Below, piece after piece: positions 2,611-60,591 of a stretch of DNA of 64,000 bases (positions are counted from its first letter, which is position 1; every line of letters begins with the position of its first letter). Under the pieces are notes generated by a model. That model was given only the letters and a program-made list of their open reading frames with translations, did not search any database and was not told the origin of the DNA. The position numbers were made by a program, and so were the translations under genes. Origin of the DNA: Dictyostelium discoideum. Taxonomy: Eukaryota. Location: NCBI GenBank assembly GCA_000004695.1, contig CM000151.3:6304001-6368000 (forward strand), given 5' to 3'.

Positions 2611-2683
<73 letters not shown>

Positions 2684-3707: not shown

Positions 3708-3784
3708 ATTTTTATTAAATTTCTTTTTTAAATATTAAGATTAAAATTGTTTTTAAAAAATTATTTTATTATGAGTTTTAATGT

Positions 3785-7321: not shown

Positions 7322-8017
7322 GAATTAATAAAAATCATTATAAAAAAAAAAAAAAGAAAACAATAATGAATAACTACCTTCTTATTTGCATTATTTTCAG
7401 ATGTAGCATCTTCATCTTGGAAGAAAAAGTTTTGTTGTTTTGGTTGTTCATCAGTGAGGAACAATGTTGATTGTTGTTGTTCATCTTTTTCATCATCATC
7501 ATCACTACTACTTTCACTTGAAGATTCATCACTACCATCCTCAGCATCAACATCTTCCTCATCTTCTTCATCTGAAGAATCAGAATCAGAATCTTCAATG
7601 AATAAACCACAGAAATCATCTTGATGAAATTGTTGTGAACCAATGATATGTGGTAATGGGTATCTTAAATAGTGATCTAATTTCTCTTTCTTCTTTTCTG
7701 TATTTGCTGATGGTTGTGCATCAGTACCTGCTTGTTCACCACCTTCAACTAAACCGCCTTCAGCTGATGATGCTGCAATACTACCATTCATTTGTTGTTG
7801 ATAATCATTATTATTGTTATTACTATTTGATTGTTCTGAAATTTCCAATGCTGCATTTACAAAGTTTGCTTTCTCTAATGCTTCCAAACCAATTAATATT
7901 GCTTTTGAAAATTTTGGTATTAATATTTCTTCTGTAATCTCTTGTTGTTGTGGTTTATCTGTTTGTTCATTTTGCTCATTATTTAATTCTGAATTATCTT
8001 CATAAACTCTCTGTTTG

Positions 8018-8060
<43 letters not shown>

Positions 8061-8539: not shown

Positions 8540-9320
8540 TTTATTTTATAGCCTATTAATATAATTTATAATCCTATTTTAAACAAACAAACAAACAAAA
8601 AACAAAAAGGATGTAAAAATTATAAATTAATACTTTATATAAAATAAAAAACGAAAAACAATTATTTATATACAAATAAAATAAAAAAATAAAAAATGAC
8701 AAGATTTTTTTTTTTTTCAACAAAAAAAAACTTTTTTTTTTTTAATTTTTATTTTTAATGAAATTTATGTAAACTTTTCAAAAAAAAAAAAAAAAATAGA
8801 AAATTGTTTTTTTTATTTTAATAATTTAATTTTTAATCTTGTTTTTTTTTTTTTAATTTCTATTAATAAACAAAAATATTGAAATTTTAAAAAAAAATAA
8901 ACCAAATAAACTAAATAAAAAACAATTATAAAAAATGATAAAAAAAAATAAATACTAAAAATAAAATTTTTGATTAAAAAAAAAAAAAATGGATTTAGTC
9001 GTTTATCATTTTGTATATTTTCGAGTGCCCTATTTATCCATAATTCTAAAATAAAAATAAAAAAAAAATAAAAAAAAAATTCTAAAATTAAAAAAGATAA
9101 AAATAAAAAAAAAGAAATCTTATTGTTTGGTTTTAGAATTACATGAAATAATACAAAATTTTATTATATCTTAATTTAAAAATTATTTCTATTATTAATT
9201 TTTTTTTTTTTTTTTTTTAAATATTAAAAAAAAAAAAATTTAACATTTGTAAAATATATTTTTTTTTTTTTTTCTTTTAATTATTATAACTTAATTTAAA
9301 AGAAGATAAAGTTCCACCAT

Positions 9321-12300: not shown

Positions 12301-12522
12301 GTCCAAGAAATCAATGGTGACTGTAATGGCTTCAATGATCTCTGATACTGTGCCATTGATTTCACCAACTTGTTCAACTATCTCTACATATAACTCCTCA
12401 TAGGAAAGGTAGGGTAAATGTTCAAGCTCTTGACCTAAAAATTCTTTTAATAATTCAGAGATTTCAAAAATATCATCCTCATTTATGAAATTACTTCCAA
12501 TTCTTGCTGAAATCACTGCCAA
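9321..12522 (-). CDS. Class II cyclic-nucleotide phosphodiesterase of the GbpA/GbpB (PdeD/PdeE) type: metallo-beta-lactamase fold followed by two cNMP-binding domains. Two exons (minus strand): 12522..10773 and 10693..9321
   Basis: The beta-lactamase HxHxDH motif 'THCHADHDSG' lies in exon 1 and continues in exon 2 ('DADMIIHESGVAPIHTP'). Two cNMP-binding modules follow: 'FFLCKKIWVKRNDVIIKKGSPSDMFYIILSGKV' and 'VIFNEGDTSDSMYIIKQGRVRI...GDFFGETAY'. The intron runs from the GTAAGT donor (10772..10767) to the AG at 10695-10694; it is phase 1 and completes a GAA codon. The N-terminal 500 aa is a Q/N-rich extension. The true start may lie upstream of the first Met, because the frame stays open 5' of 12522. 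Confidence 0.7.
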
Positions 12523-20200: not shown

Positions 20201-21661
20201 TCATGAACTCTCAATTCTGCTGTCTTTACAATCTCTGCTTCTTTATCTTTTGAAGCCATACTATTATCAAATTGTTTACCCTTTGATTGCTGAATTTGTT
20301 TCATATCCTCTACATCCTCCTCCAATGATTGAGCTTGTTGTTCATATTGGTTAACTATATCCTCAAGTTTTGAACTTTCATCACCCAAATATTTATCTCT
20401 CTCTGTCTTTGATTTAAATTGAAACATACCTTGTTTAACATACAATTCTTGTAAATTTCTTTCAGTACTTGACAATTTATTATCAATATCATCCTCTTGG
20501 CCTATTAACTCCTCTAGTTTTGGTTTAATGATTTCAATCTCTTTCTCTAATTTCTCTTTACTACCACTCAATAAATCTTGTTCCTTTTGTAACTTTTCCA
20601 ATTTAGCTTGTTCCTTTGATAATAACTTTTTAAAATGTTTTTGTTGTATAACTAATTGTGCTTTTTGTTTATCAAATACTTCATTTAATTTTTCTACCAT
20701 AATTTTTTCATTATCAATTTTTTTAATTTCACTTAAAAGTTTATTAAATTTACTTTCATCCTCTTTAAAAAGAAATAAATAATATTAGTATATATATAAA
20801 TTATAAATATTTAAAGTAATAAATAATAAATAAATAATTACTTTTTAATTCATCAGTAAATCTTTCTAATTTTTTAGATTCTTTTGAAGAATGAATTAAA
20901 TATTTTTCTTTTTCTTTTTCAAGATCTAGAATTCTATCATTTGATTCATTTGCTTCTAAATGAATGATATAGGCTTCAAATTGTTTTTTCATTTCAATTT
21001 GAGTTTGATATAATTGTAATTCTTTACGTTCTTTATCTAATACTTTGATACGTTCATCAATGTATTTTAGAAATTCTTCAATCTTTATTGATTTACTCTC
21101 AGACTCTATCATGATTGCAACAGACTCTCTCTTACGTTCTTCATAAACGGTTGCACCTGCTACCTCTTTTAACATATCCAATCTATCAGAATCTTTCATT
21201 AATGCTAATGTATTGATTTTACCTTGTTGTACGATATAGTATGGATTACTACTTGAGAAACCGGCTGCTTCAAACATATTTCTAACATCTGCTTTAGATA
21301 ATTTATTATTACCAATACTAAATTCATCTTTTGATGTACCAAATGTTCTACGTAATGAAAATTCAGTTTTATCAATCTAAAATAATAATAATAATTAGAG
21401 ATTATTTTAATTTTATTAAAAAAAAAAAAAAAAAAAAAAAAAACTTACAGGGAATCTATGATCACTATTATCAAATACAATCTCTACATAACCAGTTTGC
21501 ATTGTATTACCACCATAACTGTGTAATAGTTTTAATCTATCTTCTGAATTATTACCAACATTAAGATCACCTAATAGAAATCTAATTGCTGCAAATAAAT
21601 TACTTTTACCTGCACCATTTCTACCAGCTAGTATTTTATTTTATTTTATTTTTTAAATTAA

Positions 21662-24287: not shown

Positions 24288-25647
24288 ATGTCTTCAAATA
24301 CTCAAACTGTTCCTATAAATCAAACTCAATTTTCACACCCTCCACCGCCTCCCAGTAATTTTGGTTGGATATTTGCATTATTTGGTGCTATAATTGGTAT
24401 TCCATCTTCAATTAGAAATTTAGCAATTAAATTGATTCTAACACTTATTTTTGTTCCTTTGCTAACAATAATTGCAATACTAAATCCATCATTACAATTA
24501 TATTTAACAGAAAGAAAGATTAGTATATGTTATTACTGGTCGTCTCCATGGTTTTGTACTTCCCCAAAACAACTTTTACCAATGAATTATAGTGTTATAA
24601 TTGATATTAAATCAATTTTGTCACTTAAAGATGGATGGGAAATAGTATCAGATGGTGGGCAATTTTCAAAAAAATTTTTAAACCAAGATGCTGAATATCA
24701 AAAAATATTAATAGCTATAACAGGGGATTATAATAGTGGTAAAACTTGGTTTTTAAATAATTTAGAGAATACTAATTATCAATCTTCATACCAAAATGCT
24801 ACACCTGCATTCTCATTTGTTGAATCATCAATTTCTCCCTATGTTTATATGGATACTCAAGGTTTAAAACGATTAGCATCTTCTTCAATTCGTGATGATA
24901 GCAGTAGACATAGTATCAAGGATATCAAAGCCCTTGATAGTTTGGTTTCAGATTCATACAATGTTCCTAGCATTATTTTTGAAGTTAGAGATACTGGTAA
25001 TAATGATGATTATTGTACTCAGGAACAAAGACATGAAGAGTATTTTCAAGATCAAGTTATTCCAAAAAAAGTTGTTGTTGTTCATAATTTTAAAAATTTG
25101 GAAACAATATCTGAAGTTGAAAAATACATTCGTGACGACATTATTAATCCTGAAATTGGGGGTCAATTAGTCATTAGTTCAACTCCAGGAACCATTGGTT
25201 GCCAATACTGGTATGTTGGTAGAATTTACCATTTCGTTGTTGCTAAAGGAGGATCAAAAGCAGGAAAATTTTATAACAAATGTACATTTGATCTCATTAG
25301 ATCAACTATTCTTACCAATCAAGCTTATGTACCAAAAATAAATATTTTAAATTCTCTCATAATAAATATAGAGCAATCTCTAAGAAATAATTTAAGAGAT
25401 CCAAATTTACCAAAAGATGGATTTGTAAATGTAAAGAAGGATTCATGGAAACTCTTTAGTTTTGTAAGAAATATTTATAATCAATTTTCTTCCAAACCAG
25501 ATCCTGATGAACCAATTGACATTGAAACTAATCCATTTAAATTAATAATAGAAAATAACAAAATTAAATTAACCAACTCTTCATTTGATTTGGAATTTGC
25601 TTTTAAAGATAGCTGTGGATTTAAAAATATTGATTTTAATCCACAAG

Positions 25648-25688
<41 letters not shown>

Positions 25689-26094
25689 TTTATAGATTTT
25701 ATTTCTCAAACATATTAAATACCACTAACTAATTCAATTTTATTTTTTTTAGTGTGACGTAACTTTTAATGAACTTGAAAATAATTTCGGAATTACATGT
25801 GATCTTCCAAATTCATATATAAACTGGAGTTGCTCAAAAAACAATCCTAACATAGTTTTTCTCTATTATGAAAGAAAATCTCCAACATATTCAACCTCAC
25901 ATATTAAAAATAAAATTAATCGTAGAACATATATTAAACATAGAAAATATTTTGTAATTCCAACAAAGCATTGGATTACTTGTAAAAGTTTAATTTCAAC
26001 TGCTGTATATAAAGATGGTACTGCCCATGTATCACTCTCTGAAGATAGTACTGTTGTTGCTGGGTCTCCATTCCCAAAAGATGATAATAATTAA
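24288..26094 (+). CDS. Paralog 1 of a tandem family: N-terminal Pro-rich segment plus a TM helix, then a P-loop NTPase domain with GBP/atlastin-like motifs. Two exons: 24288..25646 and 25753..26094
   Basis: The domain carries Walker A 'AITGDYNSGKTWFLNNLEN', 'YMDTQGLKRL' (DxxG) and 'IIFEVRDTGNN' (RD motif), in the order and spacing of GBP/atlastin G1-G3-RD motifs (compare 'GKSYLMNKL', 'DTEG/DTQG', 'RDF/RDW'). The intron runs from GTAAGT at 25647 to the AG at 25751-25752 and contains a (TAT)n run. The exon 2 product 'CDVTFNELENNFGITCDLPNSY...' is conserved with paralog 2. Confidence 0.6.
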
Positions 26095-27144: not shown

Positions 27145-28882
27145 ATGCCTGATTCTCCTCTCACTGAACCTCGACAGCCTCCACAGCCTCCACAGCCTCC
27201 ACATTTTTTAAGCTGGAGAAATTTTTTAAGCTTTAGAAAATTTATAAGCTGGAAAAATGCTTTTTTAATTTTAATTCCAATTTTATTAGCGATAGGAATA
27301 GGAAACTATGAACAAATAATTCAATATTCTTCTGGCCCTATATTTATTGAAAAATTTGATCAATATAATGTTATAATTAATATTAAATCCATTTTGGCAA
27401 TAAAAGAAGGATGGGGAATAACAACCGATGGTAGCCAGTTTGCATCTATGTTTGTAAATCAACAATCTGAATACTCAAAATTATTAGTGGCATTAACAGG
27501 TGATTACAACAGTGGTAAAACTTTTTTGATCAATAACTTGGAAAACAAGAATTTCCCATCTTCATATCAACATGCAACACCTGCATTTGGGTTTATACAA
27601 TCATCAATTTCAGATTATATTTATATGGATACTCAAGGTTTGAAAAGATTAGCATCATCTTCACTTGATTCCGATAGGGGTACCCATAGCATCAAGGATA
27701 TCAAAGCCATTGATAATTTAATCTCTCAGTCTTATAAAGTTGCAAATTTAATTATCGAAGTCAGAGATACAGGTAACAATGAGGATATTTGCAATACTCA
27801 ACAAAGACATGCCGAGTACCTCCAAGATAGCAAAGCCAATGGATATCAAATCCCTGTTATGGTTGTTGTTGTCCATAACTTTAAAAACATGAGAACCGTT
27901 GCTGAAGTTGAAAAATATATTCGTGATGATATTACAAATCCAGAAATCGGTGGTCAAGAAAAAGAAGTTGATTCAAAAACTGGAGATAAAAAATGCAAAT
28001 ACTGGTATGTTGATAGCGTATTACATTATGTTATTGCCCAAGAAGGCTCTGAAGCTGGTAAAGTTTATAACAAATGTACATTTGATCTCATTAGATTAAA
28101 AGTTTTACAAGATCAAGGTGGTATTCCAAAAGTCAACTTTTTAAATAAACTCACTCTGGTTATGGAACAATCTTTAAGAAATTATATTAAAGATCCAAAT
28201 GTATCAAAAGATTCATTTGTAAGAGTAAAGAAGGATGAAACAATCGTTAGTTATGCAAGTTATCTCAAGTCTTTTTTTTCTTCCAAATCAGATCCTGAAA
28301 AACCTGATCAACCTACCCTTATTGAATCACATCCATTCAAAGTTTCAATACAAAATAACAAAATTAAATTGGTTAACTCTACTTTTGATTTACAATTTTC
28401 TTATAAAGATTGTTGTGGATTTAAAAACATTGATTATTCTCCACAAGTATGTATTATTATTATTTTTTATTTTTTTTATTTTTTTATTTTTCAAAAAAGA
28501 TATCAATTACAACATACTAATTAAATTTTATTATTATTTTAATTTTTAGTATGATGTAATCGAAACTTCAGATTCTTTTTCAATAGTAGTTGATGCACCA
28601 AATTCAATTGTCAATTGGTTTTGCTCGCCAAGTGAATCACACACAATTAGTTTTTATATTGAAAGAAAATTCCCAACATATTTAAGTTCTCATCTTAGAA
28701 GAAATATTAATCCAAGAACATATGGTGAAATCAAGAAAGAGTTTCAAATTCCATCTAGACCATGGATTGACTGCCTAAGATTAATTCCAACTGCTAAATA
28801 TATAGACGGTGTAGCATTTGTATCACTAACTAAAGATAGTACTGTTATTGGTGGTTCTCCATTTCCAGAAGATAAAAAATAA
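27145..28882 (+). CDS. Paralog 2 of the GBP/atlastin-like P-loop family (intact). Two exons: 27145..28446 and 28550..28882
   Basis: 'PQPPQPPQPPHF' N-terminus, then a TM helix, 'ALTGDYNSGKTFLINNLENKN', 'YMDTQGLKRLASSSLDSDRG', 'IIEVRDTGNNEDICNTQQRH' and 'VMVVVVHNFKNM'. The intron runs from GTATGT at 28447 to the AG at 28548-28549. The exon 2 frame runs to TAA at 28880-28882. Confidence 0.6.
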
Positions 28883-31752: not shown

Positions 31753-32675
31753 TTTATATGTATATTGATATTACAATGTTTTTTTAGTGTTACAAATATT
31801 TAAAATTATTACAATTTGATGTTTAGTATTGTTATTTATAAAATAAAAAAATGATTTCAATTTTTTTTTTTTATAATAAAATTTTTTAAAATAAAAAATA
31901 ATTAAATAATTAAATAAATAATAAAATACATATTTTTTTTTAAAAAATTTATTTAATTAATTAAATATTTAAAAATTAAATAATAATTTTATTTTTTTTT
32001 TAAAATTTATTTGTTTTTTTTTTTATTATTTTTTAAATAAGAAATGGTTAATTCAATTTTATAACTGAACGAAATTGGGTTTAAGAATAAAAAAGGTAAT
32101 AAAAAATTTTGATTGTTGGGTATTTTTCAAAAAGAAGGTTGATTTGTTTTTATATGGTTTATTATTTTTGTGTGCGATTAAACAATTTGGATTGTGTGTG
32201 TGTGAAAGTATAAATAATGCGTGTGGTTGTATCCATTATCATAATAATAATAATATAAAAAAAAAATCATATAAAAAATAAGAAAAAAAAAAAAAAATAA
32301 CTGTCATAGTCATTGATTTTGTGTACGTGGGAGTAAAAATATATACATATTATACTATTTTACACCAATAAAAATACTTTTAATGTTTTTTTATAAATTA
32401 ACTAAAAATGTATTATATAGATAATGTCAAGATGTGTAATAAGATTGATATTATTAAAATCATGTGCTATTTTTCTTTTTTTGTGTGTAGGTTTGTGGTT
32501 GTTGTTATTGTTATTGTGGGTGTGGTTGTGTTTGTCTTTAATTATTGATATAATAATTATTGTAAATTTAAAAAAATAAAATTTGAAAAAAAATAAAATA
32601 TTCAATTATGTGGTAATTGTTTTTATAAATTTTGAAGCTTATTTTTATTAATCACAAGGTTTAGTATTAGTAAAA

Positions 32676-32730
<55 letters not shown>

Positions 32731-32854
32731 ATAATTAAAAAAGTAGAAAAAAAAAAAAAATAATAAAAATAATAATATTAATATTAATAATCAATTTAAA
32801 TTAAGAATATCACTATTTTTAAAAATAACAATTTATTTAAAATAATTAACATTA

Positions 32855-32896
<42 letters not shown>

Positions 32897-33992
32897 GAGA
32901 GGTAAAATAAATGAATAAAATAGTATTATTACTAGTTACAACCAATAAAAAATGAAAAAACATATTTGTAAAAAAATAAATGATTTATTTGAAATGTAAT
33001 TAGTGTGTATTATAAAAATATTTTTAATATTTTCAAATAACTTGATTATTAAAATTAAACATATTATTATAATTGAAAACAAAGAATATGGAATTTTTAC
33101 TACTTATTAATATTATATAATTTCCTTTTTATATCTATATTTTGTGTTTTTAACCTTTTCAGATTTTAAGGAAAATAAAAAAAACAAGGGAAATTCAATT
33201 CAATTCTAATGTTGGAATTTTTTGTAGTTGATTTTATATTAGTGATTGTATATTCACGACGAGTTTCATACAAATAAAAGTACAAGTCAAAATAAAAAAT
33301 TAAAAATAGAATTGGAATTTTTTAAAAAAAGAAAAAAAAAAAAACACACACCCCCAACCTAAAAATAAATTCATTTTTGTGTTTAATTTTAAAAACATAA
33401 GTGAAGTTGGGAAAAAAAAAAAAAAAGAAAAAAAAAAAAAAAAAAAAAATATTTTGGCAATCAAAAATTTAATGGGGAAAAAAAAAAAAAAAAAATGGGC
33501 GTTGATATTTTAATTAATTATAATTTTGGAAATTAAAGAAAAAATTTTAGATTAAAAAAATAAAAAAAAAATAAAAAAAAATAATAAAAAAAAAAATTAC
33601 AATTTTCAATGCATTTTTAAAAATAATATCGCAATTTTGCAAATCTTTTTTTTTTCCAAAAGATTTTTATTTTTTTTTTTATTTTTGTTTTCATTTTCAA
33701 ATTCCACATGATTTAAAGGGCGTAAAATGAGAACATAAATGTTGACATATAAAAAAAAATATAATAGGCAACTATCTCAAAATATATCACACGTTTTATT
33801 TGAAAACTTCACTTCCAAAAAAAAAAAAAAAAACAGGGTGAAAATGCACTTTTAATGTGGTGTTGTTGTTAATAGACTCATTTATTGTGAGTTACACAAA
33901 AATAAGACGCAAAATTAAAAGTCGTGAAGTTGTTAATTGAGGGTTTCGCCATTAATGTCGTTCTAAAAATATCCAGTCTTAAAAATAATTTT

Positions 33993-34036
<44 letters not shown>

Positions 34037-35086
34037 GGATGATTCTGTGATTTTTTAATTTTATTTCATTTTTTAAAAATTTTGTTTTTATTTTTTTTTT
34101 TTTGATCAATTCTAGATGAAATAATATTTAAAAAAAAAACATTTTGGAAAAAAAAAAAAAAAAAAAAAAGATATATAAAAAAAAAAAAAAAAAAAAAAGA
34201 TTAAAAGTTTTTTTGTTTTCAACAATTCTAATTTTTTATTATTTATTTTTTTTTTTTTTTTTCGGATATCCATGTTACCAAGATTATAAATATAAGGGAT
34301 TCTATTTTTAATAAATATATACTCTTCTGTTAAAAAAAAAAAATACAAAAAAAAAAAAAATAAAAAAAAAATAAAAAAAAAATAAAATAAATTAAAAAAA
34401 AGAGGTTTTATTTTTAGTAACTCTAGATATATATTTATTAAAAAAAAAAAAAAAAAAAAAAAACCCAAAAAAAAAAAATTTAAAAATAAATCAATACCCT
34501 CAATTAAATTTCTAAAATAAAAATAGTTTTTTTTTTATTTTAATCACTAATAATCCTTCTTGTTCCACAAACAAAACAAATAAATGTTTTTCTATATATA
34601 TAAATAATATAGTTGTTTAGATATTGTAAAAATTAATTTTTTTATTCACATTTATTTGTAATTTATTTTTATTTTTAGTTTTTATTTGTTTATGTGTATT
34701 TCATTTGTTTTTCTTTTCAAATAATTAAATCTTTCATAACAAAATAAAATAAAAAAAACACCCCTTTTCAAAATTAGCAATCCATTGTTTTTCCTTTTAC
34801 ATTGGTTTGTCAAAAAACACAACACTCTTTTTTTAATTTTTTATCACCCAATTGTACTATTACTCATCAAATAATTCCATTTTTAATAATTTACAAATAA
34901 AATTTATAAAATATAAAAATAATAACATTAAAACAAAAAAAAAATAAACAAAGATTATTTTTTTTTTCCAAAAACTATTATTTCAAAGATTTATTTTTTT
35001 TTTTTTTGTTTTTGTTTTCCAAATAATTAATTCTTTTTTTTTTTTGTTTCCATAAAATTAATAATAGTTTTATATAAAAATTAAAA

Positions 35087-37662
<2,576 letters not shown>

Positions 37663-38029
37663 TTATTTTTAAAAAAAAAAAAAAAAAAAATTGCGACAAC
37701 AATGGTTGTAATAAATTTAGTAATGACATCATTTCTAAAATATTTAGAAAGGATTTCTAAGCATCTAAATTTACAATTAATATAAGTTGATTATAGAAAA
37801 ATCAATTTATATTTAAAAAAAAAAAATAATAAAAAATAAATAATAAAAAAAAAAAAAAAAAAAAAAAATTTATTTGTATGATTTATATTTGTTATAAAAT
37901 ATTATATTATTATTTTTATTATTAGATTTTTTACATTACCTGAATGAATTTTCAAACCACATGTTTGTTATTTTTTTTTTTTTAAAATATTATATGGAAT
38001 CAATTTTAGAAAAAAAAAAAACTTTTATC

Positions 38030-38810: not shown

Positions 38811-41121
38811 ATGTCATTTAACATACCCACAATTCATACAAATAACTCCAAAAACGATAATAATGATGAAAATAATAATAATAATCAACACACAGAAAAT
38901 CCATACATTTCAATAAATAATAAAATCACCCCAGAAAATAGTATCTCATCAAATCTTAATCAAATCGAGAAAGCTGTTAAAGTTGCCAATTCTCAAAACC
39001 TTGATTTAGCATTGATTGGTAATTGCTCATTTGGTGCTCTTATTGATAAGAAATCATGCATCAAATGGTGTTGCATTCCAAGATTTGATGCAGATCCAAT
39101 ATTTTGCTCATTAGTTAGAAAATCAAATGATTCAGGTAAATTTACAAATATTCTAAAAAAAAAAAAAATAAAAAAAAAAAAAAAAAATAATAATCCATTC
39201 TAACTCTATTATTTTTTTTTTATTTTTATTTATTATTACAGGTTTTTATGATGTTGTGGTTGAAAACTTTGCATTCAGTGAGCAGGTATATATAAAAAAC
39301 ACAGCGGTTTTATCAACAAAACTGTACAACACTAATGGAGGTGGTGTTGAAGTAATTGATTTTGCACCAAGATTCAATATGTTCTCTCGTCCATACAGAC
39401 CATCAATGATTATTAGAGTCATTAAGCCATTGGGCCATTGTAGAATTAAGATTAGACTAAGACCAACATTCGGGTAAATTTTTAAAAAATAACTTAATTT
39501 TCTATAATTTTTTTTTTTATAAATTATATTTCCTTTTCAAAAATATATTAACTTTTTTTTTTTCTTTTTTTTTTATATTTTTATTTAATAGTTATGGATG
39601 GGGTGCACCAGAAAAAACCAGAGGTACAAACCATATAAGATATATATTACCATCAATGGTAATGAGACTTACAACCAATGCTCCAATTTCATATATTGTT
39701 GATGAAGTTTTATTTGAAGCTGATGAAACATTATACTTTGTATTTATGGCTGATGAAAGTTTAAGAGAATCCCTTCATGATGTTACCAATACTTATTTGG
39801 ATAAAACAATTGAATATTGGCAAGAATATACTAAATCATTAGCTGTATGTAATATAATAATTTATTTTTAAAGTTTTAACAATTTTATTATTAATTTTTT
39901 TTTTTTTTTATTTTTTAAAAAAAATAGATTCCACTTGAATGGCAATCACAAGTTTTAAGAGCATGTATTACTGTAAAACTTTGCCAATTTGAAGAATCTG
40001 GTGCCATTATTGCATCATTAACAACATCAATCCCAGAAGAACCAACTAAAGAAGGTTATGATCTTAGATTTTGTTGGATTAGAGATACTTCTTATATTGT
40101 ACATACATTCAACAAACTTGGTAATACAAAGATGATGGAAGATTTCCTTACTTACATTTCAAACATTGTCTCAGGTTCATTGGAAAGAGGTGGATTCCTT
40201 CAACCAGTTTATGGTATTTCATTAGAAACAAAACTCTATGAAAAGTCAATGTATAGACTTGCAGGTTACAGAGGTCTTGGTCCTGTTAAAATTGGTACAA
40301 GAGATTATAAAACAATTCAAAATGATGTTTATGGTCAATTAATTTTAGCATCTATTCAAATGTTTTTTGATCAAAGATTAAATAAACCAGGTGATATTCA
40401 GTAGGTAATTTAATTATTTTAAAATAATAATATTGGTTACTAAATTTTTTTTTTTAAAATAAAAGTTTATTCCATAAATTAGAAGGTTTAGGTATGCAAG
40501 CATATACAAATTATAATAAACCAGATTGTGGTCCATTAGGTAAAGGTTCAATTGAAGATGGTAAAATTTATACATTTTCATCATTTATGTGTTGGACAGG
40601 TTGTGATAGATTAGCAAAGATTGCAAAGAGTTTAAAGATTCCATTACGTGCACATTTCTGGCAAGAATCTGCAAATAAAATCAAGGAAGAAATGATGGAA
40701 CGTTGCTTCAACAAGGAAAAGAATTCATTTGTATCAACTTGGGATGGAGATGATGTTGATCCTTACCTTTTATTGATTGCAGAATCTGGATTCACTAAAA
40801 TTGATGATCCAAAATTCATTGGAACCGTTGAATATTTAGAGAAAAAACTTAGAAGAGGCAAATACATTATTCAATCACCAGACAGTGTTAGTGCATCAAC
40901 TACATTCACTCTCTACTATATTTCTTGTATTGCTAAAATGGGTAGAAAAGAAGAAGCAAGAGAACTTTTTGAAAATATCCTTAATGATTGCACTCCATTG
41001 GGTTTAATTAGTCAAGATGTTAACCTTGAAACCAAAGAAATTTGGGGTAACTTTCCAAAAACAACTTCAATGGTTGGTATAATTAATGCTGCTATTTGTT
41101 TAAGTAAACCATGGGAATCTG

Positions 41122-41129
<8 letters not shown>
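38811..41129 (+). CDS. Glucoamylase-like six-hairpin glycoside hydrolase (GH15-type). Five exons: 38811..39135, 39242..39473, 39592..39844, 39928..40400, 40466..41129; about 648 aa
   Basis: Exon 4 carries the GH15-like 'YDLRFCWIRDTSY' and 'NDVYGQLILASIQ' motifs, and exon 5 has 'EIWGNFPKTT'. The introns are 39136..39241 (GTAAAT), 39474..39591 (GTAAAT), 39845..39927 (GTATGT) and 40401..40465 (GTAGGT), all ending in AG and all phase-consistent. The in-frame stops at 39475 and 40402 are bypassed by splicing. Confidence 0.65.
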
Positions 41130-41318: not shown

Positions 41319-44300
41319 TTATTTTAAACCACCTGAAGTAATAGCAATCCAAATTGGTAATATTGTAGTTTTAAATTTAATTTCAATTTCTACATGAGAA
41401 CCATTAGTTTTCTTATTTGATATAAAAGCTATTTTGTTATTTGAAATTGATACTTCATTTGAAAAGGTTGAACCATTAAATCCACTAGTGTCAAGTAAAA
41501 ATTGATATGAATTACCTTGGTATTCAACTTTGAAATTACATATTGATGTATTAATTGATATTGGGTGAGAAGACTCTACCGAAGTCCAACTTGTTCCAAA
41601 ATTTTTGTGAATATTGAGTTGAGTAGAATGAGATTTAATATTTACTGCATGCATAGCCTTAAAGAAATTAAATGATGGATTTGGTGGATCTCTAAATTTA
41701 ACTAAAGGATGTTTATTGTTAAAGAATAATTCAAAGGTTTTACCACCTTGAGGAGCACCACCAATCTTAATATTGAATAATTCCATACCACCAATCGAGT
41801 ATCTTAAAGCTGGTTCGAATGAATTAACTTTTTCATGACGTGATGTTAAATTTTGAGGTTCAATAAAGAAAAATGGAATACCACTTGGTGATCTAATCTT
41901 TAAAAGTGTTTTACTTGAATCTAATAATTTTGAATAAGATTGAAATGTGAGCTTTGAGCATTTCATTAAATCTAACTTTATTAATCTTAGTTTTGAAATT
42001 GATTCTGAAACAATTAAATTATCAACAAATGGTGGTAATGCTAATTTAACAACCGATGGACATCCTTTATAAAGTTCATTAAAATCTTCTCCTAAGATAC
42101 CACTACAACCACCTAAATCCAATACCTCTAAATCTTTACAAGTTGAAGCAATAAGTTTAACTATTAAATCTGTAAGTGTTGGTATTTCATAAAGTTTTAA
42201 TTTTCTTAACTTTGGAGTGATTAAATCTGATAATACCCATTCATTGATTCCATTTTGATTATTACCAAAATTGAGATAGGTAATATTTGATAGATTAGAT
42301 AAACTTTTCAATTTACTACAATCATTAATTTTTAATTTTCTTGAAATAAATGATTGAATATCTGGTTTAATCTTTGAAAAAACTTCAATACTATTACTAT
42401 TGATATGTTCATCGAAATAAATCTTTTCAACATTTATATTTTCAAAGTAATCTAAATCCTCTACTTCAAATTGAATATTTAAAGGAATTGTAAACTTTTC
42501 TTTTTTAATTGAGTATTTTTCTTCCAATGAATTCTTTACAATTGATCTTAATTTTGGAACAGTTCTAGAGGTTTCAAAAAATATCCATGGACTAAAATCA
42601 ATTAATGGTTTAATTTTATCAATAATTGATTCAATATTTTTACTAATACTAAATGCTTTAGTAATATGTTCTGATACTTTTTCTTTTGAAAAATTTTTAT
42701 TACTACCTTGAGTTACCAATAAAAATAATGAAATACCAATATGAGCTTTTTGATAATTTGGATCAATTTTAAATATATTACTAAATTAAAAAAAATGAAT
42801 TAGTTTTTTATAAAAATAATAATAATAATAATAAAAATAAAAATTAAAATAAAATAATTTACTTACTTATAAGCAGTTAAAACTTTAGAGTAATCAAATT
42901 TTGAATTATATTTATATAAATGATCAAAGAATTTTGCCAAAAGGTAACTTGGATATGCTTTATCTGGTGATTGTTCAATAATTTCATTTAAAACTATTTC
43001 AATTTCTTCAATTTCTTTAGGAAGAATAAATCCTTCAAACTTTAAATGTGATAGAATAGTTTTAACTCTACAAATTTTTAAAAGAAGTACTTGACTTTGA
43101 ACAACTCCAATTGTATCAAATGTAGAGAGTTTTTTGTTTGCCAACACATAGTAGAGTTGTTTCTTTGTATAATCTTGTGAAGTTTTTGCCAACAAAGTTA
43201 AAACTTTAGCCAATTGGATAACAATTTGGAAATTATTATTCATGGTGAGAATTGATTGCTCTAAACGTTCCCTTGAAATTGTTAATAGTCTATGTTTACT
43301 TGTATCACTTAAACCTGAAGCCATAGATTTATAATATAAACTCATACCATCTGCATAATCAATAACATTTAATCTAGTTGAAAGAGTTTTAATCTCTTTA
43401 ATATCTGTATCTACAAATACGAATGAATCAGAATTATTAAATTGAGAAATTGCAATTTTACTAATTACCAAACCAATTGATTTACAAAATTTTTTTAAAA
43501 TCATTTCTCTGGTTGGAAGAGTTGTCAATAAATTTTTAATAATTTCTTGTGGAGTAACTGGTAATTTTGGTGAATTTTCATTTAACTCTGGCTCTTCTTT
43601 TTCGGTATTTACATTATTGAAAATATTTTGAAATTTCTTTTCCATCTTTTCTAATATAATTTTATTCCAAATATATTCAGTTTTATCTTTATATTCATCA
43701 AATAATAAATTTAAAAATTTTAATAATAAACCTAAATTGAAATAATAATAATATTAATATTAATAATAATAAAATAAAGAGAATTAATAAATTTTATTAT
43801 ATAATAATTTAAAAATTATTAATTATTATTATGTTTTTTTTTTACTTACTTCTATATGGATAATCAGATGGTAAATGAATATTTCTCATTTCTCTTCTTA
43901 ATAATTCTCTTGCTAAACTTTTAAGTGTTCTAACTATTGCTTCAATTGTAAAGAATCTTTTATAACCAATACTTGTACAATGACTTGCAACTTCACCAAT
44001 ATATCTAATATTAATACCTTCAGCATGAAGTAATTTTGAAACATCTGTAATCTTGTCAGAAATATTTGATAGTAAATCTTGTAAAAAATTTGTTTTTAAA
44101 CCAATTTCATCTCTAGTTTGAATATCTTTAGAGAATTTTGGAATGATATTATTCATTAAATCATCATATGCCTCTTGAACTTCCACATTATGTTTATTTG
44201 AATCAATTGTTGACATTGGCGAAAATGCATCACTACATAATGGTTTTTGATATTTTCTAACCAATTCTAGTCTTAATAGTTTATAAAGATATGAACCACG

Positions 44301-45860
44301 ATGTTTTGGTGGTTCTGGTGGTGATAATCTTGCGAAATCTAATAAATAGAAACGATTATCACCTCCTAAATGACCCTCAATATCAATTGGCCCACTGATT
44401 GATTTAATATCACCACTGATATCTTCTACAAAATGTTGTTTTAAATTGATAACTTTTGAAGCATTTAAAAAGAGATTATTGAAAATATTATTACTTGTGT
44501 GTACAGTTTGACCAGCGTCACAACTACCATAAATTAAACTTTTCTTTGAAATTGGTAATAATGACATTGCCATCAACCGGAAGCCTCTATAATCGATAAA
44601 TGCCATCAATGGTACATGTAAACCTTTGACACCACAATTTAAAAATGAAGCACAACCATTTAATTCATGTGCTGCTGTTTTCATTGCATTCTCATCATTG
44701 CCATATAATCCAAATGCTTCATTCTCCAACGCAAATTTGAATAATATACCTTGAACGATATACTTTTCACCACCAGCAATACCTCCGACACTAACTGGTT
44801 TAATTGTTTTCAATTCATTGGCCAAGAAATTCTCAGAGATAATAATTCTACCATAACTTTCAGCTGCATAAACAAAATCATGCTCTAATGAACTAAGTCT
44901 TTCAAATTTCTCTAAACAATCATCCATTTCTAATAATCTTTGAAATTCTGAACTCCAATAATATAATGCTATATTATCCATCTTTTTCCCAGTAATTGAA
45001 CTACCGCTACTACCACTGCTAAAACTTGAAGAAGCATTTGATACATTTAAATTATCATTTGTAAGGAATTTTGGATGTGAATAAGATGAATATGGATTGG
45101 ATTTAATATTATCATCTAAATATCCACTTTGTAATACTTGTAATCTTTGTCCAGATGGTGATGATGATGATGATGATGATAATGTTGTTGATATATCACT
45201 AATATTATTGTTATTTTCATTTTTTGGTAGTTCTAAAACTTTATTGTATCTTACTAATGATTCTAATACTAATAAATCATTTTCACTAATATCATGCATA
45301 AAATAAGGCTTTTTTAAATCAATATCATGATTATCTTCATTTCCACCACTATTAGTAGTTTTACTACCATAAATTGAATATGGATCACTACTTTGACTAT
45401 CTTGAACATTACAAATTCCATAAATTGATTCACTTTGATCGCTACCTTTATAACTATAAAAATTACTTTCACTTGATGAAAAGTCTTGTGTAGAATTTGA
45501 AGTGTTATCATATCTTGCTTTATTTGATGAAAATGAATCTGATATAGTTGGTGAAGCATTATCATATCTATTATTTGATTGTGTTGTTAAAGAAGAGGAT
45601 GATGAAACTGATTCTGATTTAATATCGTCTTTATTAAAATTATCATATCTTGATGATGAAGAAGATGATGATGATTGAACAATATTTGGTGAAGCATTAT
45701 CATATCTATTATTTGGTTGTTGTTGTTGTGTTATTGGCTGCACATTATCATATTTTTGTCTTAAAATATCTGGTGAGACCTTTAATCTTAATAATCTTTG
45801 CGAAAGGGCATTTTCTTTTTCTCCCAAGTATGAAAAAACTTCATTATAATCATAGCCCAT
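41319..45860 (-). CDS. CLU (clustered-mitochondria/TIF31-like) domain protein, paralog A, with an LRR-like C-terminus. Three exons (minus strand): 45860..43850, 43731..42867, 42780..41319; about 1445 aa
   Basis: The central Clu-domain signature reads 'AMKTAAHELNGCASFLNCGVKGLHVPLMAFIDYRGFRLMAMSLLPI...GHLGGDNRFYLLDFARLSPPEPP...LHAEGINIRYIGEVA'. Introns run from GTAAGT (43849..43844) to the AG at 43733-43732 and from GTAAGT (42866..42861) to the AG at 42782-42781. They join three ORFs in the same order and with the same junction sequences ('PYR|SLLLKFLNLLFDEY...', '...TAYN|NIFKIDPNYQKAHIG') as the single continuous ORF of paralog B. The C-terminus has 'LEVLDLGGCSGILGEDFNELYKGCPSVVKLALPPF' (LRR/F-box-LRR-like). 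Confidence 0.65.
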
Positions 45861-46254
45861 TTTGTTTGGATTTGTTTTTTTTTTTTTTTAGTAATAATAC
45901 AGAAAAAAAGATTTTTTTTTTTTTTTTTTGTGTTGTGTAAAAAAATGATTTATTGATAACAAAAAAAAAAAAAAACTAATCTCTTTAATAGTTTTTTTTT
46001 TCTTTTTTTTTTTTTCTATTTGCTATTTTTTAAAATTAATTGAAACAATGGAAATAAAAAAGAAAAAACATCATTTTGAAATATCTTTTTTTTTTTTTTT
46101 TTTTTGATTTTTTTTTTTTTTTTTTAGATATTTTTTAAAAACGTTGTTTTGGTTGCCTTTCTGTGAAAAAAGTAAATTTTATTTTTAATTTTTTTTAATT
46201 TTTTTTTTTTTTTTTTAACCAATTTTAATTTTAATTTTATTTTTAAAAATTTTA

Positions 46255-49200
46255 TTAATTTTGGATACCTGTGGCAATTGCAAAGAAAATTGCAAATGGA
46301 GAAATGATTTTACTAGTTTTAATATCAGCATCAACACTTAATCTCATAGTTTTTGCATTTGAAACGGTTAAGACAGCATTTAAATTTGATCCAATTGAAA
46401 CATTTGAAGTGAAAGTAATACCTTGAAGACCAGATTGAGCGATATTTTTAAATTGATAAGAGATACCTTGAGATTCGATTTTAGTTGCAAAAGTTGGTGA
46501 ACTTGACATTGGTAAAGTTTGAGTGGATTCAATAGTTCTCCAATTTCCATTCATAGTGATATCATTGTAAACTGTTAATTTTGTAATTGGTTTATCAATG
46601 ATATTGACATGAGCAACTTTAAAGAAACCTGAAGAATTGAGTAAAGCATTTGGTGGATTTCTAAATCTTACCAATGGATTCTTATTATTATAAAATAGTT
46701 CAAAATTTCTACCTGAAGAAACCATTATACCATGACCAATCTTCAAATAGAATAATTCCATACCACCAACTGAATATCTTAAACATGGTTCATTTGGAGC
46801 TACTTTAGCATGACGAGCTGTAATATATTGTTGGTCAAGATAGAACATTGGTACACCAATTGGATTTCTAACTTTTTTGAGTGTACTACAAATATCTAAT
46901 GCTTTTGAGTATGAATGATGAGTAACTTTTGAACATTTAATTAAATCCAATCTAACCAATGGTAAAGTACCATTTAAAATCTCTGAAACACCATCATTCT
47001 CTATGAATGGTGGTAATGCTAATTTAGCAATTGATGGACAACCTTTATAAAGTTCATTAAAATCTTCTCCTAAAATACCACTACAACCACCTAAATCCAA
47101 TACTTCTAATTCTTTACAAGTTGATGAAATTAATTTAACTGTTTTATCTGTAATATCTGGTAATTCATATAATTTTAATTTCTTTAATATTGGTGTAATT
47201 AAATTTTCAATCATTTCATCTTTAACACCTTTTGAAAAACCTAAATTTAATTTTATAATATTTCTAAATTTACTTAAACTTTCAAAAATTTTAAATTCAT
47301 TTTCATTATTATTATTATTTTCCTCTTCTTTTACTTCTTTTTCTTCTTGATTATTTTCTTCTTCTTCTTCTTTTTCTTCCTCTTTTTCTTCTTCTTCTTC
47401 TTTAATTTTACTAAATTTACTAAATCTAATTATAATTGATTGTGAATTTGATTGAATTTTTGAGAAAACTTCAATATTTTTAGCATTTGAATGATCATCA
47501 AAATAAATCTTTTCTAATTTAATATTTTCAAAATAATATTGATCATTAAATTCAAAATGAAGATCATGTGGAATTAAAAGTTTATTATTATTTTTTTCAA
47601 CTTTTAATTCTAATGCACTCTTTACCATTGATCTAACTTTTGGAATTGATCTTGATGATTCAAAAACTACCCATGGATTAAAATCAACTAATGGTTTAAT
47701 TTTGTTTACAATTGATTCAATATTACCAACTTTGAATGCTTTTACTATATGATCAGAAACTTTTTCAGGTGAAAATAGTTTATGAAGATGTTGAGTTTTT
47801 AATAAAAATATTGAAATACCAATATGAGCTTTTTGATAATTTGGATCAATTGTGAAAATCGTATCATAAACATCGGTAATCTTTGAATAGTCATACTCTG
47901 CTGAACTACCTTTTGAACAAATGAAATAGAATTTTGCTAAAAGATAATTTGGATAAGCTTTATTTGGTGATAGTTCTATTGTATCCTTTATGATTTGTTC
48001 AATTTTTTCAATTTTTTCTGCTTGGAAGTATTGAATTCTTAAATGTGATAATGAAATTTTAATTCTTTGAATTCTTGAAATTAATAAAAGATTTTGATCA
48101 ATTCTTAATTGTTCCAATTGAGAAACTGTATTTTCAGCCAATGTGAATAGTTCTCTTTTAATATTATCATTATCAGTGGTTTTAGCTAATAAACGAATAA
48201 CATTTGCCAATTGAAACATTGCATTATGATTGGTACTCATTGAATGAATTGATTCCTCTAAACGATCCTTTGAAATTGTTAATAGTCTGTTCTTACTTTT
48301 ACTATTTAAACCAGTTGCCATTGATTTATAATATAAACTCATACCATCTGCATAATCAATGATATTTAATCTTGAAACTAATGTATTGATTGCTTTGATA
48401 TCTGGATCAACGAATACGAATGATGATGACTTTGAAAATTGTTCAAGTGAAACTTTGCTAAGTACAAGACCAATTGATTTACAGAATTTAGTTAAAATCT
48501 TTGATCTTGTATATGGACTTAATAATAAATCTTTAATCAACTCTTGAGGTGAATATTTGAAATTTTGAGGATCCTCAACAAAATCATTTGGAATTGAATT
48601 GAATCTACTAAATGATTCTTTATCTTTATAGGAATCAACGAAAGGATTTATAAATTTCTCTTCGAAATGGGTTGCTTTATTGACGAAAATATTTTGAAAT
48701 TTCTTTTCCATCTTTTCAAAAACAATTTTTGACCAAAATAATTCAGTTTTACCTTTATAATCATCAAATATTAAATTTAAGAAATTTAATAATAAATTTC
48801 TATATGGATAATCAGATGGTAAATGAGTTTTCTTCATTTCTCTTCTTAATAATTCTCTTGCTAAACTTTTAAGTGTTCTAACTATTGCTTCAATTGTAAA
48901 GAATCTTTTATAACCAATACTTGTACAATGACTTGCAACTTCACCAATATATCTAACATTAATACCTTCAGCATGAAGTAACTTTGAAATATCTTTAATT
49001 TTATTATTAGCTTGTCTTAGAATTTCAACTGATGAATTTGTTTGGAAACAAATTTCATCTCTAGTTTGAATAAATTTAGAGAATTTTGGAATGATATTAT
49101 TGATTAAATCATCATATGCTTCTTGAACTTCTACATTATGCATATCAATATCAATACTTGACATTGGCGAAAATGCATCACTACATAATGGTTTTTGATA

Positions 49201-50489
49201 TTTTCTAACCAATTCTAGTCTTAATAGTTTATAAAGATATGAACCACGATGTTTTGGTGGTTCTGGTGGTGATAATCTTGCGAAATCTAATAAATAGAAA
49301 CGATTATCACTTCCTAAATGACCCTCAATATCAATTGGCCCACTGATTGATTTAATATCACCACTGATATCTTGAACAAAATGTGGCTTTAAATTTACAA
49401 TTTTGGCAGCATTTGAAAAGAGATTATTGAAAATATTATTACTTGTGTGTACAGTTTGACCAGCGTCACAACTACCATAAATTAAACTTTTCTTTGAAAT
49501 TGGTAATAATGACATTGCCATCAACCGGAAGCCTCTATAATCGATAAATGCCATCAATGGTACATGTAAACCTTTGACACCACAGTTTAAAAATGATGTA
49601 CAACCATTTAACTCATGTGCTGCTGTTTTCATTGCATTCTCGTCATTACCATATAATCCAAATGTTTCACTCTCCAATGCAAATTTGAATAATATACCTT
49701 GAACGATATACTTTTCACCACCAGCAATACCTCCGACACTAACTGGTTTAATTGTTTTCAATTCATTTGATAAGAAATTCTCAGAGATAATAATTCTACC
49801 ATAACTTTCAGCTGCATAAACAAAATCGTGCTCTAATGAACTAAGTCTTTCAAATTTCTCTAAACAATCATCCATTTCTAATAATCTTTGAAATTCTGAA
49901 TTCCATGAATATAATGAAATACTTTCCATTTTTTTTGTACTTAATGAACTTGCTGATGATTGAGTAATTGTTCTACCACTACCACTACTTTCTGATAAAG
50001 CTTTATCAGTAAGGAATTTTGGATGTGAATAAGACGATATAAATGCATTATTACTACTAATATATGGATTTGAATTAAAATTATTCTCTTCTTCATATCC
50101 ACTTAATGTTAATTTTGGTCTTGATGATGTTCCACAAGTATCATCATCATCTTTGTCATCTTCATCTTCTTCAAATTCACCTATTTTTGATTTAGATTGA
50201 ACTAATGATTCTAATAATAATAAATCACTTTCACTAATATCACGTTCACTATATGCTCTTTTCTTCTTTTCATTACCACTACTTGTAGTTAAATCAGATT
50301 GTTCATAATCTTCGTCTTCTTCATCTTCACTATATGGTTCATCATTTCCATTAGCATTGTAAGCACTATAACTTGATGAGCCACCATAACTTGAAATATT
50401 ATAATTACTTGAACCACCACCAACTAAACTACCACCATATTGACTATAATTACCACCAGCAACCATATTACCACCATATTGACTATAAC

Positions 50490-50524
<35 letters not shown>

Positions 50525-51144
50525 CCTTGTTCACTATATTGTGAAAAAGCATTATATGAATTATTGTTGTTATTTTCAACATCACCAGACACTAATGGTG
50601 CATTATCATATCTTGAAGCTGTTGATGAAAATGATGATGTTAAATTATTTCTTCCTGTTAATTCTTCATTTTGATTTGTTGTAGATTTTGACTTTTCATC
50701 ATTTGAATTTTCATATCCTGATTTACTTGGAGTAGATTCATCTTCATTTTCATATGATGATTTAATTGGAGTTTGTGAATTTGTTGTTGTGGTTGTTGTC
50801 TCTACTACATTCTCTGATTTATTTTGATCATTTTCAACTTCAGTGTTAGCGACTGTTGTATTTGTATTTGTTGTTGTAGTTGTTGTTGTTGTTGTTGTTG
50901 GAGCATTAGTTGGTGAATTTATTTCATTTACTAATTTATTTTCTTCTCCCTCACTTTTTATTGGTTGTTGTTGTTTTGAGGCTTCATCAACTACTGTTGT
51001 TGTTGTTGTTGCTGTAGGCTGTTGAGTTGGATTTGGTTTGGGTGCTACTTTTGCTGGTCTTTTAAACCTTGCTGGTCTTTGAGAAAGAGCTCTTTCTTTT
51101 TCACCCCAGTATGAAAAAATTTCACTAAAATTTTTATTTGTCAT
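46255..51144 (-). CDS. CLU-domain protein, paralog B (single 1629-aa ORF), tandem to paralog A
   Basis: The ORF is collinear with paralog A throughout: N-terminus 'MTNKNFSEIFSYWGEKERALSQR' versus 'MGYDYNEVFSYLGEKENALSQR', an identical Clu-domain block, and an LRR-like C-terminus. It has additional acidic and E/K-rich insertions ('KEEEEEKEEEKEEEEENNQEEKEVKEEE'). Confidence 0.7.
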
Positions 51145-56341: not shown

Positions 56342-58780
<2,439 letters not shown>

Positions 58781-60450: not shown

Positions 60451-60518
60451 ATAAAACAATTTAAAAAACTGATTCGAGTATTTCCGGAACTTCGGATTTT
60501 GATATAAATACTAAAAAG

Positions 60519-60591
60519 TGGTTCTACTGAGACTCGAACTCAGATTACAGGATTCAAAGTCCTGGGTGCTAACCAATTACACTATAAAACC
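60519..60591 (-). tRNA. tRNA-Gln (anticodon UUG)
   Basis: The minus-strand sequence is 'GGTTTTATAGTGTAATTGGTTAGCACCCAGGACTTTGAATCCTGTAATCTGAGTTCGAGTCTCAGTAGAACCA'. It folds as a 7-bp acceptor stem (GGTTTTA/TAGAACC), a D-arm, an anticodon arm CCAGG-A-CTTTGAA-TCCTGT with TTG in the loop, and a T-arm GAGTTCGAGTCTC. It is 73 nt long. Confidence 0.85.

Follow-up and report, generated by a model that had tools for sequence, protein, structure and literature searches.

Introduction

The Dictyostelium protein CldB (Clu domain B, 164 kDa) co-purified with the adaptor LrrB, which carries an SH2 domain and leucine-rich repeats (LRR), together with CldA and ubiquitin (Sugden et al. 2010, J Biol Chem 285:22927; PMC2906285). 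The association of CldB with LrrB was found by mass spectrometry and requires both the SH2 domain of LrrB and pervanadate; ubiquitin was the third protein in the pull-down band that held CldA and CldB, and the authors saw no similarity of CldB to other proteins outside its Clu domain (PMC2906285). In the searchable literature this is the sole paper that names the gene, DDB_G0276091, and none names its neighbour DDB_G0276089; it reports the former alone.

Here we describe the locus of both genes, which lies within a 64,000-nucleotide stretch of chromosome 2 of Dictyostelium discoideum AX4 (contig CM000151.3, positions 6,304,001 to 6,368,000, hereafter the window). The two form a tandem pair on the minus strand, to which all coordinates of the pair given below refer. 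They are arranged head-to-tail 394 bp apart, with DDB_G0276089 (paralog B, 46255..51144) upstream and cldB (paralog A, 41319..45860) downstream. We interpret them as non-canonical CLU proteins that end in an LRR solenoid and a predicted beta-barrel, whose CLU cores are homogenised by gene conversion, of which one copy has lost its introns, and which may act as signalling scaffolds. For this overall explanation, comprising the identity of the pair, its architecture, the history of the locus and the scaffold proposal, we estimate a probability of about 0.7.

Identity and gene structure of the pair

The open reading frames (ORFs) of the window give paralog A as three collinear segments (43842..45860, 42863..43645 and 41319..42719). 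Our splice model joins them through exons 45860-43850, 43731-42867 and 42780-41319, the last including the stop codon, into a coding sequence of 4338 nt that has no internal stop and encodes 1445 aa with a computed mass of 163.8 kDa. The translation crosses both splice junctions in register with the continuous B sequence and with no indels. An exact-sequence look-up shows that the spliced protein is identical in every residue to XP_643282.1 / DDB_G0276091, and its mass agrees with the 164 kDa published for CldB (PMC2906285). Paralog A is the CldB of that study.

Paralog B is one intron-less ORF of 1629 aa (184 kDa) whose protein is an exact match to XP_643283.1 / DDB_G0276089. In A, intron 1 (43732..43849, 118 nt) is in phase 1 within codon 671 and intron 2 (42781..42866, 86 nt) in phase 2 within codon 959; both run from GTAAGT to TTTAG. 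A preliminary description of the locus, made from the letters of the DNA, had read these exon structures correctly: a single ORF in B, and two GTAAGT introns in A at positions where B is continuous. Both genes are already annotated; one also has a name and has been studied in part.

The CLU core and the region that follows it

Pfam matches place both proteins in the CLU superfamily. The CLU domain (PF13236) is found at aa 302-516 of A (44313..44957, E 1.1e-60) and at aa 414-628 of B (49261-49905, E 1.7e-63), and the match spans 221 of the 225 model positions. The profile search with hidden Markov models (HMMs) thus returned a significant CLU match in both proteins, not the lack of a match that the preliminary description had named as its refutation. 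With an identity of 60.6% over 1424 aligned positions, A and B are tandem CLU-domain paralogs, as had been proposed, and the strings cited in that proposal (AFIDYRGFRLMAMSLLPI, NRFYLLDFARLSPPEPP, GINIRYIGEVA and LEVLDLGGCSGILGEDF) are all found in the window.

The CLU domain is followed by a partial match to eIF3_p135 (PF12807) at aa 607-656 of A and aa 718-774 of B, which scores 28.5-28.9 bits against a cutoff of 22 and covers about 60 of 171 model positions. A profile of the CldB family aligns beyond this match with a Balamuthia CLU protein (94.5% probability). The profile searches for CLU_N and LRR that had been suggested were also run, and neither family matched in Pfam at E<=0.1; at this threshold there was no CLU_N (PF15044) match in B or in exon 1 of A, and no TPR, LRR or F-box match in the whole A or B proteins.

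The middle region of A (aa 690-1072, 42441..43675) has no significant domain match and is assumed to be helical. Here a vestigial TPR-like helix pair lies at about aa 935-985 of A, spanning intron 2 (...IDPNYQKAH...). At this one conserved helix pair, TPR_17 and TPR_19 give sub-threshold matches (E 0.006-0.05) in four of five family members, and no TPR family reaches its threshold anywhere in the middle region of the five. Comparison of the middle region with the TPR parts of TPR-bearing CLU proteins by hhalign gave probabilities of 1-13%, which are not significant. A long collinear alignment with these proteins, obtained with greedy hhalign, was rejected as being carried by the CLU core. Apart from this vestige, the results agree with the earlier view that the pair has no canonical TPR tail.

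The C-terminal LRR solenoid and beta-barrel

The C-terminal part of A begins with a seven-turn beta/alpha solenoid at about aa 1078-1257 (41886..42425), of the F-box/LRR (cysteine-containing) type. A phmmer search against the sequences of the Protein Data Bank (PDB) gave one match, the LRR domain of FBXL2 (6o60_C, E 1.5e-5, A 1111-1240). From 13 orthologs, AlphaFold2 gave a confident model of A 1073-1445, with a predicted local distance difference test score (pLDDT) of 86 and a predicted template modelling score (pTM) of 0.84; in this model seven LRR turns run into an all-beta domain with a terminal helix. The top Foldseek matches of the solenoid are FBXL2, SKP2, FBXL17, KDM2B, Rad7, TIR1, COI1 and D3. 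All of these are LRRs of receptors of SCF (Skp1-Cullin-F-box) ligases.

No F-box was found at E<=10 in the region preceding the LRR in five family members, in a scan limited by the HMMER filters, which discard most matches above about 0.1. In single-sequence mode, Pfam gave no significant LRR or other match on the last 370-414 residues, and the LRR assignment therefore rests on the PDB sequence match together with the structure model. On these two lines, the C-terminal LRR that the preliminary description had suggested is judged genuine, and of the F-box/LRR class without a detectable F-box.

The solenoid of A is followed by a predicted 12-stranded beta-barrel with a hydrophobic C-terminal helix (aa 1258-1445, 41322..41885). 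In B, the LRR and barrel together occupy aa 1207-1629 (46258..47526) by alignment with A and by a barrel HMM match at B 1427-1628; the barrel itself is assigned to aa 1427-1629 (46258-46866) with the same HMM. The beta-rich tail had been described as conserved between the two copies; it is present in A, in B and in all the dictyostelid orthologs that we examined. When A 1256-1445 is modelled alone (pLDDT 81, pTM 0.79), it forms 12-13 strands and the hydrophobic helix. The helix comprises residues 177-187 of the fragment (ILPIWIAITSG), its pLDDT is about 81-90, and all orthologs share its hydrophobic character. Of the 13 sequences in the alignment of the barrel, 12 have [KR] at the opening of strand 4 and all have N-x-[KR] following strand 11; an FRD loop is invariant.

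The Tubby-like fold is a 12-stranded barrel around a central C-terminal helix (Bateman et al. 2009; PMC2639001), and the predicted barrel of the pair is probably of this Tubby/LURP1-like kind. A reading of its C-terminal helix as a tail-anchor transmembrane segment was rejected, given only about 8-15 hydrophobic residues that are confidently predicted within the domain. Outside Dictyostelia, no barrel was found in a profile search of 1.84 billion representative proteins. The sole non-family match of the profile, P0060 (2045 aa, E 1e-29 through 19 partial matches), was rejected as a translated tandem-repeat artefact with a repeat unit of about 60 residues (...YYYELYLKENKRLVTWRDTTMN...). Matches of the barrel profile or its members to SMEZ-2, a WD40 protein and YHS were dismissed as noise.

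An acidic insert rich in E, K and N lies in the first LRR turns of B (aa about 1246-1280, window about 46987-47091). It is absent from A, and its length and sequence vary among B orthologs.

The N-terminal region and the association with LrrB

The N-terminal 300-410 aa of A and B are of low complexity and occupy the place of CLU_N. In A this region (aa 1-299, 44964..45860) is assumed to be disordered and carries short conserved motifs. One is found at the extreme N-terminus (FSYLGEK in A, with FSYWGEK and AYWDGK as other forms); further ones are DISExDLxxLExL, DISENDLLVLESL in A, and SYSHPKF, which occurs solely in Dictyostelium species.

CldB carries five Y[DE]N motifs in this region, at Y37, Y53, Y72, Y99 and Y117 (window about 45504-45752), four of which read RYDN. 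A shuffle test gave an expectation of 0.25 for the five observed (P about 5e-5), and a scan of the whole protein found none outside the N-terminal region. Every dictyostelid ortholog examined has one to six copies in its N-terminal region. As the binding of LrrB depends on its SH2 domain and on phosphotyrosine, the motifs are candidate docks, and the cluster is the obvious candidate, from its sequence, for the SH2 docking sites of LrrB. The SH2 domain of Grb2 prefers the pattern pY-x-N, which is a lead and not a test.

Proposed function

We tentatively propose that the proteins of the CldB pair act as signalling scaffolds. Once phosphorylated on tyrosine, the Y[DE]N motifs of the N-terminal region would serve as docks for the SH2 domain of LrrB, and possibly for that of CldA too. 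Docking would draw the CLU core, together with the C-terminal module of LRR and barrel, into the complex of LrrB and CldA, which would tune how a small set of genes is expressed; the signature of lrrB- and cldA- cells includes the expression of cinB, ttdA, abcG10 and discoidin. Recognition would fall to the LRR-barrel unit, whose ligand would be a protein, a lipid (for instance a phosphoinositide) or both. We regard this chain, taken as a whole, as possible rather than probable. A more complete version, in which the CldB family would be a new CLU scaffold whose pY[DE]N docks the SH2 domains of LrrB and CldA and whose LRR and Tubby-like barrel would be gated by phosphoinositide or another ligand, possibly passing substrates on to the ubiquitin system, is a long shot.

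An alternative is that the two proteins are substrate receptors or adaptors of the ubiquitin system, with the LRR and barrel selecting substrates, and not phosphotyrosine scaffolds. The LRR of CldB is closest to those of SCF receptors, distant relatives in which LRRs follow the CLU domain bear a C-terminal UBC (E2) or SPRY domain, and plant Tubby-like proteins join an F-box to a Tubby domain. Ubiquitin was also present in the LrrB pull-down band with CldA and CldB (PMC2906285), although its presence in a gel band is weak evidence. Against this, neither paralog gives any F-box, SOCS box, UBC, RING or HECT signal. We consider a ubiquitin role in place of the scaffold role unlikely; the two are compatible and do not exclude each other.

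Should the more complete version of the scaffold proposal be right, phosphotyrosine signalling would be coupled to the role of the CLU core, which in CLUH is the binding of mRNAs for mitochondrial proteins. CldB is among the very few non-canonical CLU proteins with an experimental handle, namely its phosphotyrosine-dependent joining with LrrB. The LRR-barrel module and the Y[DE]N cluster point to particular tyrosines as targets for mutation, to a module for deletion, and to candidate lipids or partners.

The CldB family

The CldB family is a single-copy orthogroup across Dictyostelia that was duplicated once, in the clade of D. discoideum, D. citrinum, D. firmibasis and D. dimigraforme. The preliminary description had called the pair an uncharacterised lineage-specific expansion. 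The duplication is indeed lineage-specific; a broad expansion is not seen, as there is one duplication in a single-copy orthogroup, and the identification of A as CldB, a published LrrB partner, means that the pair is not wholly uncharacterised.

We placed ten dictyostelid sequences of the family in a tree of CLU cores from which CluA was absent, a protein search with the CLU core alone having returned only sequences shorter than 650 aa. The ten form one clade (100%), apart from the other dictyostelid CLU paralogs (P0043/P0047, 100%) and from the TPR-bearing proteins. The nearest neighbours of this clade are P0015 and P0016-18, with about 70% support. Region-specific profiles reveal the order CLU, central, mid1 and LRR in many longer proteins from outside the dictyostelids.

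The transcriptome protein P0015 is the closest non-dictyostelid CLU and LRR relative. Its tail (aa 1101-1310, 210 aa) resembles the dictyostelid barrel in its beta-rich composition and hydrophobic end, but shows no detectable similarity to the barrel profile (hhalign probability 0.7%). Diverged barrels in the tails of P0038, P0048 and P0024 were considered and rejected, these tails being LRR or low complexity.

Intron loss in paralog B

We compared introns across orthologous loci by threading the annotated proteins onto the DNA and matching alignment column and phase. Intron 1 is found at the same codon, column (896) and phase in all A orthologs and in D. purpureum, Heterostelium album and Acytostelium subglobosum; the A orthologs and D. 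purpureum also have intron 2 at a common column (1219) and phase. The B copies of D. citrinum and D. firmibasis contain no introns, and that of D. dimigraforme is uninterrupted. T. lacteum is without both introns and has a single intron of phase 1 at column 1113. In a tree built from 678 gap-free columns of the C-terminal part, the D. purpureum gene diverges ahead of the separation of A from B, with support of 100% for the A and B clade, 87.5% for A and 100% for B.

The two introns, being common to lineages that precede the duplication, are older than it, and B lost both. Comparison of the gene structures thus indicates that both introns were precisely lost in B and not gained in A. The ancestral single gene had at least intron 1, and intron 2 goes back at least to the ancestor of D. 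purpureum and D. discoideum. The tandem duplication followed after the D. purpureum lineage branched away. The most likely and most economical route for the loss in B, as we infer it, would be one recombination with reverse-transcribed mRNA.

Alternatively, B could be a retrogene, formed by reverse transcription of a processed cldB-like mRNA and insertion of the product directly upstream of the parent gene. Both introns are gone with no indel at either site, and B is intron-less in every species that possesses it, as a retrogene would be. A head-to-tail tandem 394 bp apart is, in contrast, typical of unequal crossing-over, and landing beside the parent gene would be improbable; B also has a full N-terminus, is under purifying selection and evolves more slowly. 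No poly(A) remnant or target-site duplication is recognisable in the A/T-rich flanks, which is uninformative, and BLAST of the flanking DNA of A against that of B gave A/T low-complexity matches alone, equally uninformative on duplication versus retroposition. We therefore hold a retrogene origin to be quite improbable and prefer tandem duplication followed by intron loss in B.

Intron 1, 118 nt long in D. discoideum, is shorter in D. dimigraforme (84 nt) and longer in the A orthologs of D. citrinum (310 nt) and D. firmibasis (337 nt). The D. purpureum model DICPUDRAFT_15088 (L004 10001-14682) has three extra introns with poor donors (GTAATA, GTCGAA and GTGGTA), which may be annotation artefacts. 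One of these (phase 1, column 1111) lies two columns from the intron of T. lacteum (column 1113); given the near-coincident sites, a third ancestral intron is possible.

Gene conversion of the CLU cores

The CLU blocks of A and B are nearly identical. The preliminary description had missed that this near-identity is largely the product of recurrent gene conversion. Synonymous sites, trees and informative sites define a conversion tract at about aa 304-670 of A (43851..44951) and about aa 416-782 of B (48799..49899), which includes the CLU domain and the central stretch with the eIF3_p135-like match. The number of synonymous substitutions per site (dS) between A and B is 0.03-0.2 across A at about 300-690, versus 0.5-1.5 elsewhere. 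In trees of the tract, the A and B copies from one species fall together (98-100% bootstrap), also with third codon positions alone; this grouping is opposite to that of the C-terminal tree, which groups sequences by paralog.

The tract is a mosaic, with A-specific islands at aa 441-480, 587-618 and 659-661. Its 5' edge is the end of the divergent, indel-rich N-terminal region. Its 3' edge, where informative sites change from one type to the other, lies no further than about 10 codons from intron 1 (codon 671), the point at which A and B cease to be collinear. In the tract, the dS between the paralogs (0.11) is lower than that between D. discoideum and D. citrinum orthologs (0.26-0.35), so conversion continued after the speciation of D. 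discoideum and D. citrinum. These comparisons indicate that gene conversion has made the CLU cores of the two copies alike time and again, and that it has done so independently in each species.

Selection acts on both copies: the ratio of nonsynonymous to synonymous rates (dN/dS) between orthologs is 0.07-0.52 in every region, which points to purifying selection. The middle region of A evolves faster in a relative-rate test (51 versus 26 unique changes, p=0.004) and the residual differences in the CLU tract are nearly all derived in A (18 in A, 2 in B). The LRR and barrel evolve at equal rates in A and B. Purifying selection alone, without gene conversion, could be called upon to explain the near-identity of the CLU blocks, as the CLU core has the lowest dN/dS of all regions (0.07-0.11). 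Such an explanation is highly improbable, because synonymous sites are homogenised too, third-position trees join A and B of the same species, and the paralogs are closer in dS than the orthologs although the duplication predates that speciation.

That A instead acquired its two GTAAGT introns after duplication from an intron-less ancestor like B, which the more conservative sequence of B and the lack of both introns in T. lacteum might favour, is effectively refuted, since intron 1 sits at the identical site in lineages that split before the duplication and intron 2 is common with D. purpureum, so that a gain would call for four lineages to have received insertions in parallel at one and the same nucleotide; of the intron gain or loss that had been suggested to follow the duplication, the loss in B holds and the gain in A is discarded.

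Because gene conversion holds the two CLU cores close to identity, the functions of this core in DDB_G0276089 and CldB may be redundant. Single knock-outs may consequently show little or no phenotype, given the near-identical CLU core next door.

A second, short conversion tract may lie over the most conserved LRR turn (LEVLDLGGCSGILGEDFNELYKGCP), at about aa 1161-1200 of A (window about 41886-42180). Species-type sites outnumber paralog-type sites there by 6:1 in D. discoideum and D. firmibasis, and this is not seen in the other two pairs.

Neighbouring genes and the rest of the window

A multi-exon gene at 38811-41129 on the plus strand converges on A, and 189 bp separate the two stop codons. 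Matches to Glyco_hydro_15 and weak ones to TREH_N are found in the orthologs of this gene from D. citrinum, D. firmibasis and D. dimigraforme, species in which the synteny with A is conserved. At the D. dimigraforme locus (L003), an extra gene of 335 aa is annotated on the opposite strand between B and A (7505-9414). The deposited 1730-aa B model of this species has no Pfam record, and tblastn locates an uninterrupted B ortholog at 2314-7203.

Elsewhere in the window, ORFs on the plus strand encode a protein with four calponin-homology domain matches (121-1653), a double-AAA ATPase with a CDC48_2 domain (15101-17095) and a Gar1/Naf1-domain protein (56342-58777), and an ORF on the minus strand (17260-20700) an SMC-hinge protein. 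Adjacent minus-strand ORFs at 9324-12522 carry two cNMP-binding domains and a metallo-beta-lactamase domain and are probably exons of one gene, a combination reminiscent of the cyclic-nucleotide-stimulated phosphodiesterases of Dictyostelium. ORFs 3788-6967, 24288-25715, 27145-28521 and 36028-37659 gave no Pfam match at E<=1e-5. A tRNA-Gln (anticodon TTG) lies at 60518-60591 on the minus strand according to ARAGORN and Rfam, and is the sole Rfam match in the window. The G+C content of the window is about 22%, and the stretch 32001-38000 is the most A+T-rich (G+C 14-20%).

Discussion

Our analysis identifies the pair as CldB and a tandem paralog, and adds to what was described before. The coupling of an FBXL-type LRR with a predicted Tubby-like barrel, the clustering of Y[DE]N motifs, the intron loss in B and an intron-bounded conversion appear to be undescribed in the searchable literature. 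The locus offers an example of a tandem copy from which two ancestral introns were precisely removed, and of a conversion tract that halts where an intron breaks collinearity. No existing view is overturned.

Several points weigh against our reading. The first concern the barrel, whose assignment as Tubby-like relies on a structure that is itself predicted and on a single program. A Foldseek search of the PDB with the barrel gave nothing at E<=0.001 (best E 0.04), and TULP1 (3c5n_A), which has the top query-normalised TM-score (TMq), reaches 0.48 with E 0.23. The barrel profile gave no match to Tubby or At5g01750 among PDB sequences at E<=10, and the 13 members gave none to Tub (PF01167), LOR (PF04525) or Scramblase (PF03803) in Pfam at the same threshold. 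The terminal helix is itself a prediction, and its enclosure by the barrel would be a further assumption.

Other points touch the scaffold proposal. No phosphorylation site of CldB has been mapped, so the Y[DE]N sites remain candidates, and docking at them presupposes a matching specificity of the LrrB SH2 domain. The original study leaves open whether CldA or CldB bears the phosphotyrosine (PMC2906285), and the searchable literature holds no mutant of cldB or DDB_G0276089. Expression of A is backed solely by its mass-spectrometry identification (PMC2906285), and that of B solely by purifying selection. As for the history of the locus, recombination with cDNA and retroposition are indistinguishable as the mode of intron loss in B, and the D. 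purpureum contig stops 1.3 kb past the gene, with no neighbour matches.

Comparison with known systems

The published account of CldB (PMC2906285) is without the LRR, the barrel, the Y[DE]N cluster, DDB_G0276089, the intron loss and the conversion. Among other protists, the CLU-then-LRR proteins (P0031 of the amoebozoan Pelomyxa schiedti, and P0019, P0021-24, P0026, P0029-30 and P0033) share the domain order of the CldB family and belong to the same broad radiation of CLU cores. They are 1.9-2.8 kaa (thousand amino acids) long, and their tails are SPRY, UBC (E2) or more LRRs, and not the barrel; profile searches detected neither the barrel nor the pre-LRR segment of the CldB family in them.

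The superfamily of Tubby-like proteins (Tubby, phospholipid scramblases, and LURP1/DUF567 such as At5g01750; PMC2639001) differs in that the CldB barrel has no detectable sequence or profile similarity to it and is joined directly to an LRR, an arrangement not found in the literature searched. The F-box/LRR proteins (FBXL2, SKP2, FBXL17 and KDM2B, and TIR1, COI1 and D3) have the same solenoid class as the CldB pair, whereas the LRR of CldB is internal to a CLU protein with no F-box detected upstream.

Finally, the CldB pair has in common with canonical CluA, yeast Clu1, Drosophila Clueless and human CLUH the CLU domain and part of the eIF3_p135/CLU-central region. Unlike these, it is without CLU_N and without a significant TPR array; its N-terminus is of low complexity, and its C-terminus is formed by the LRR and the barrel.

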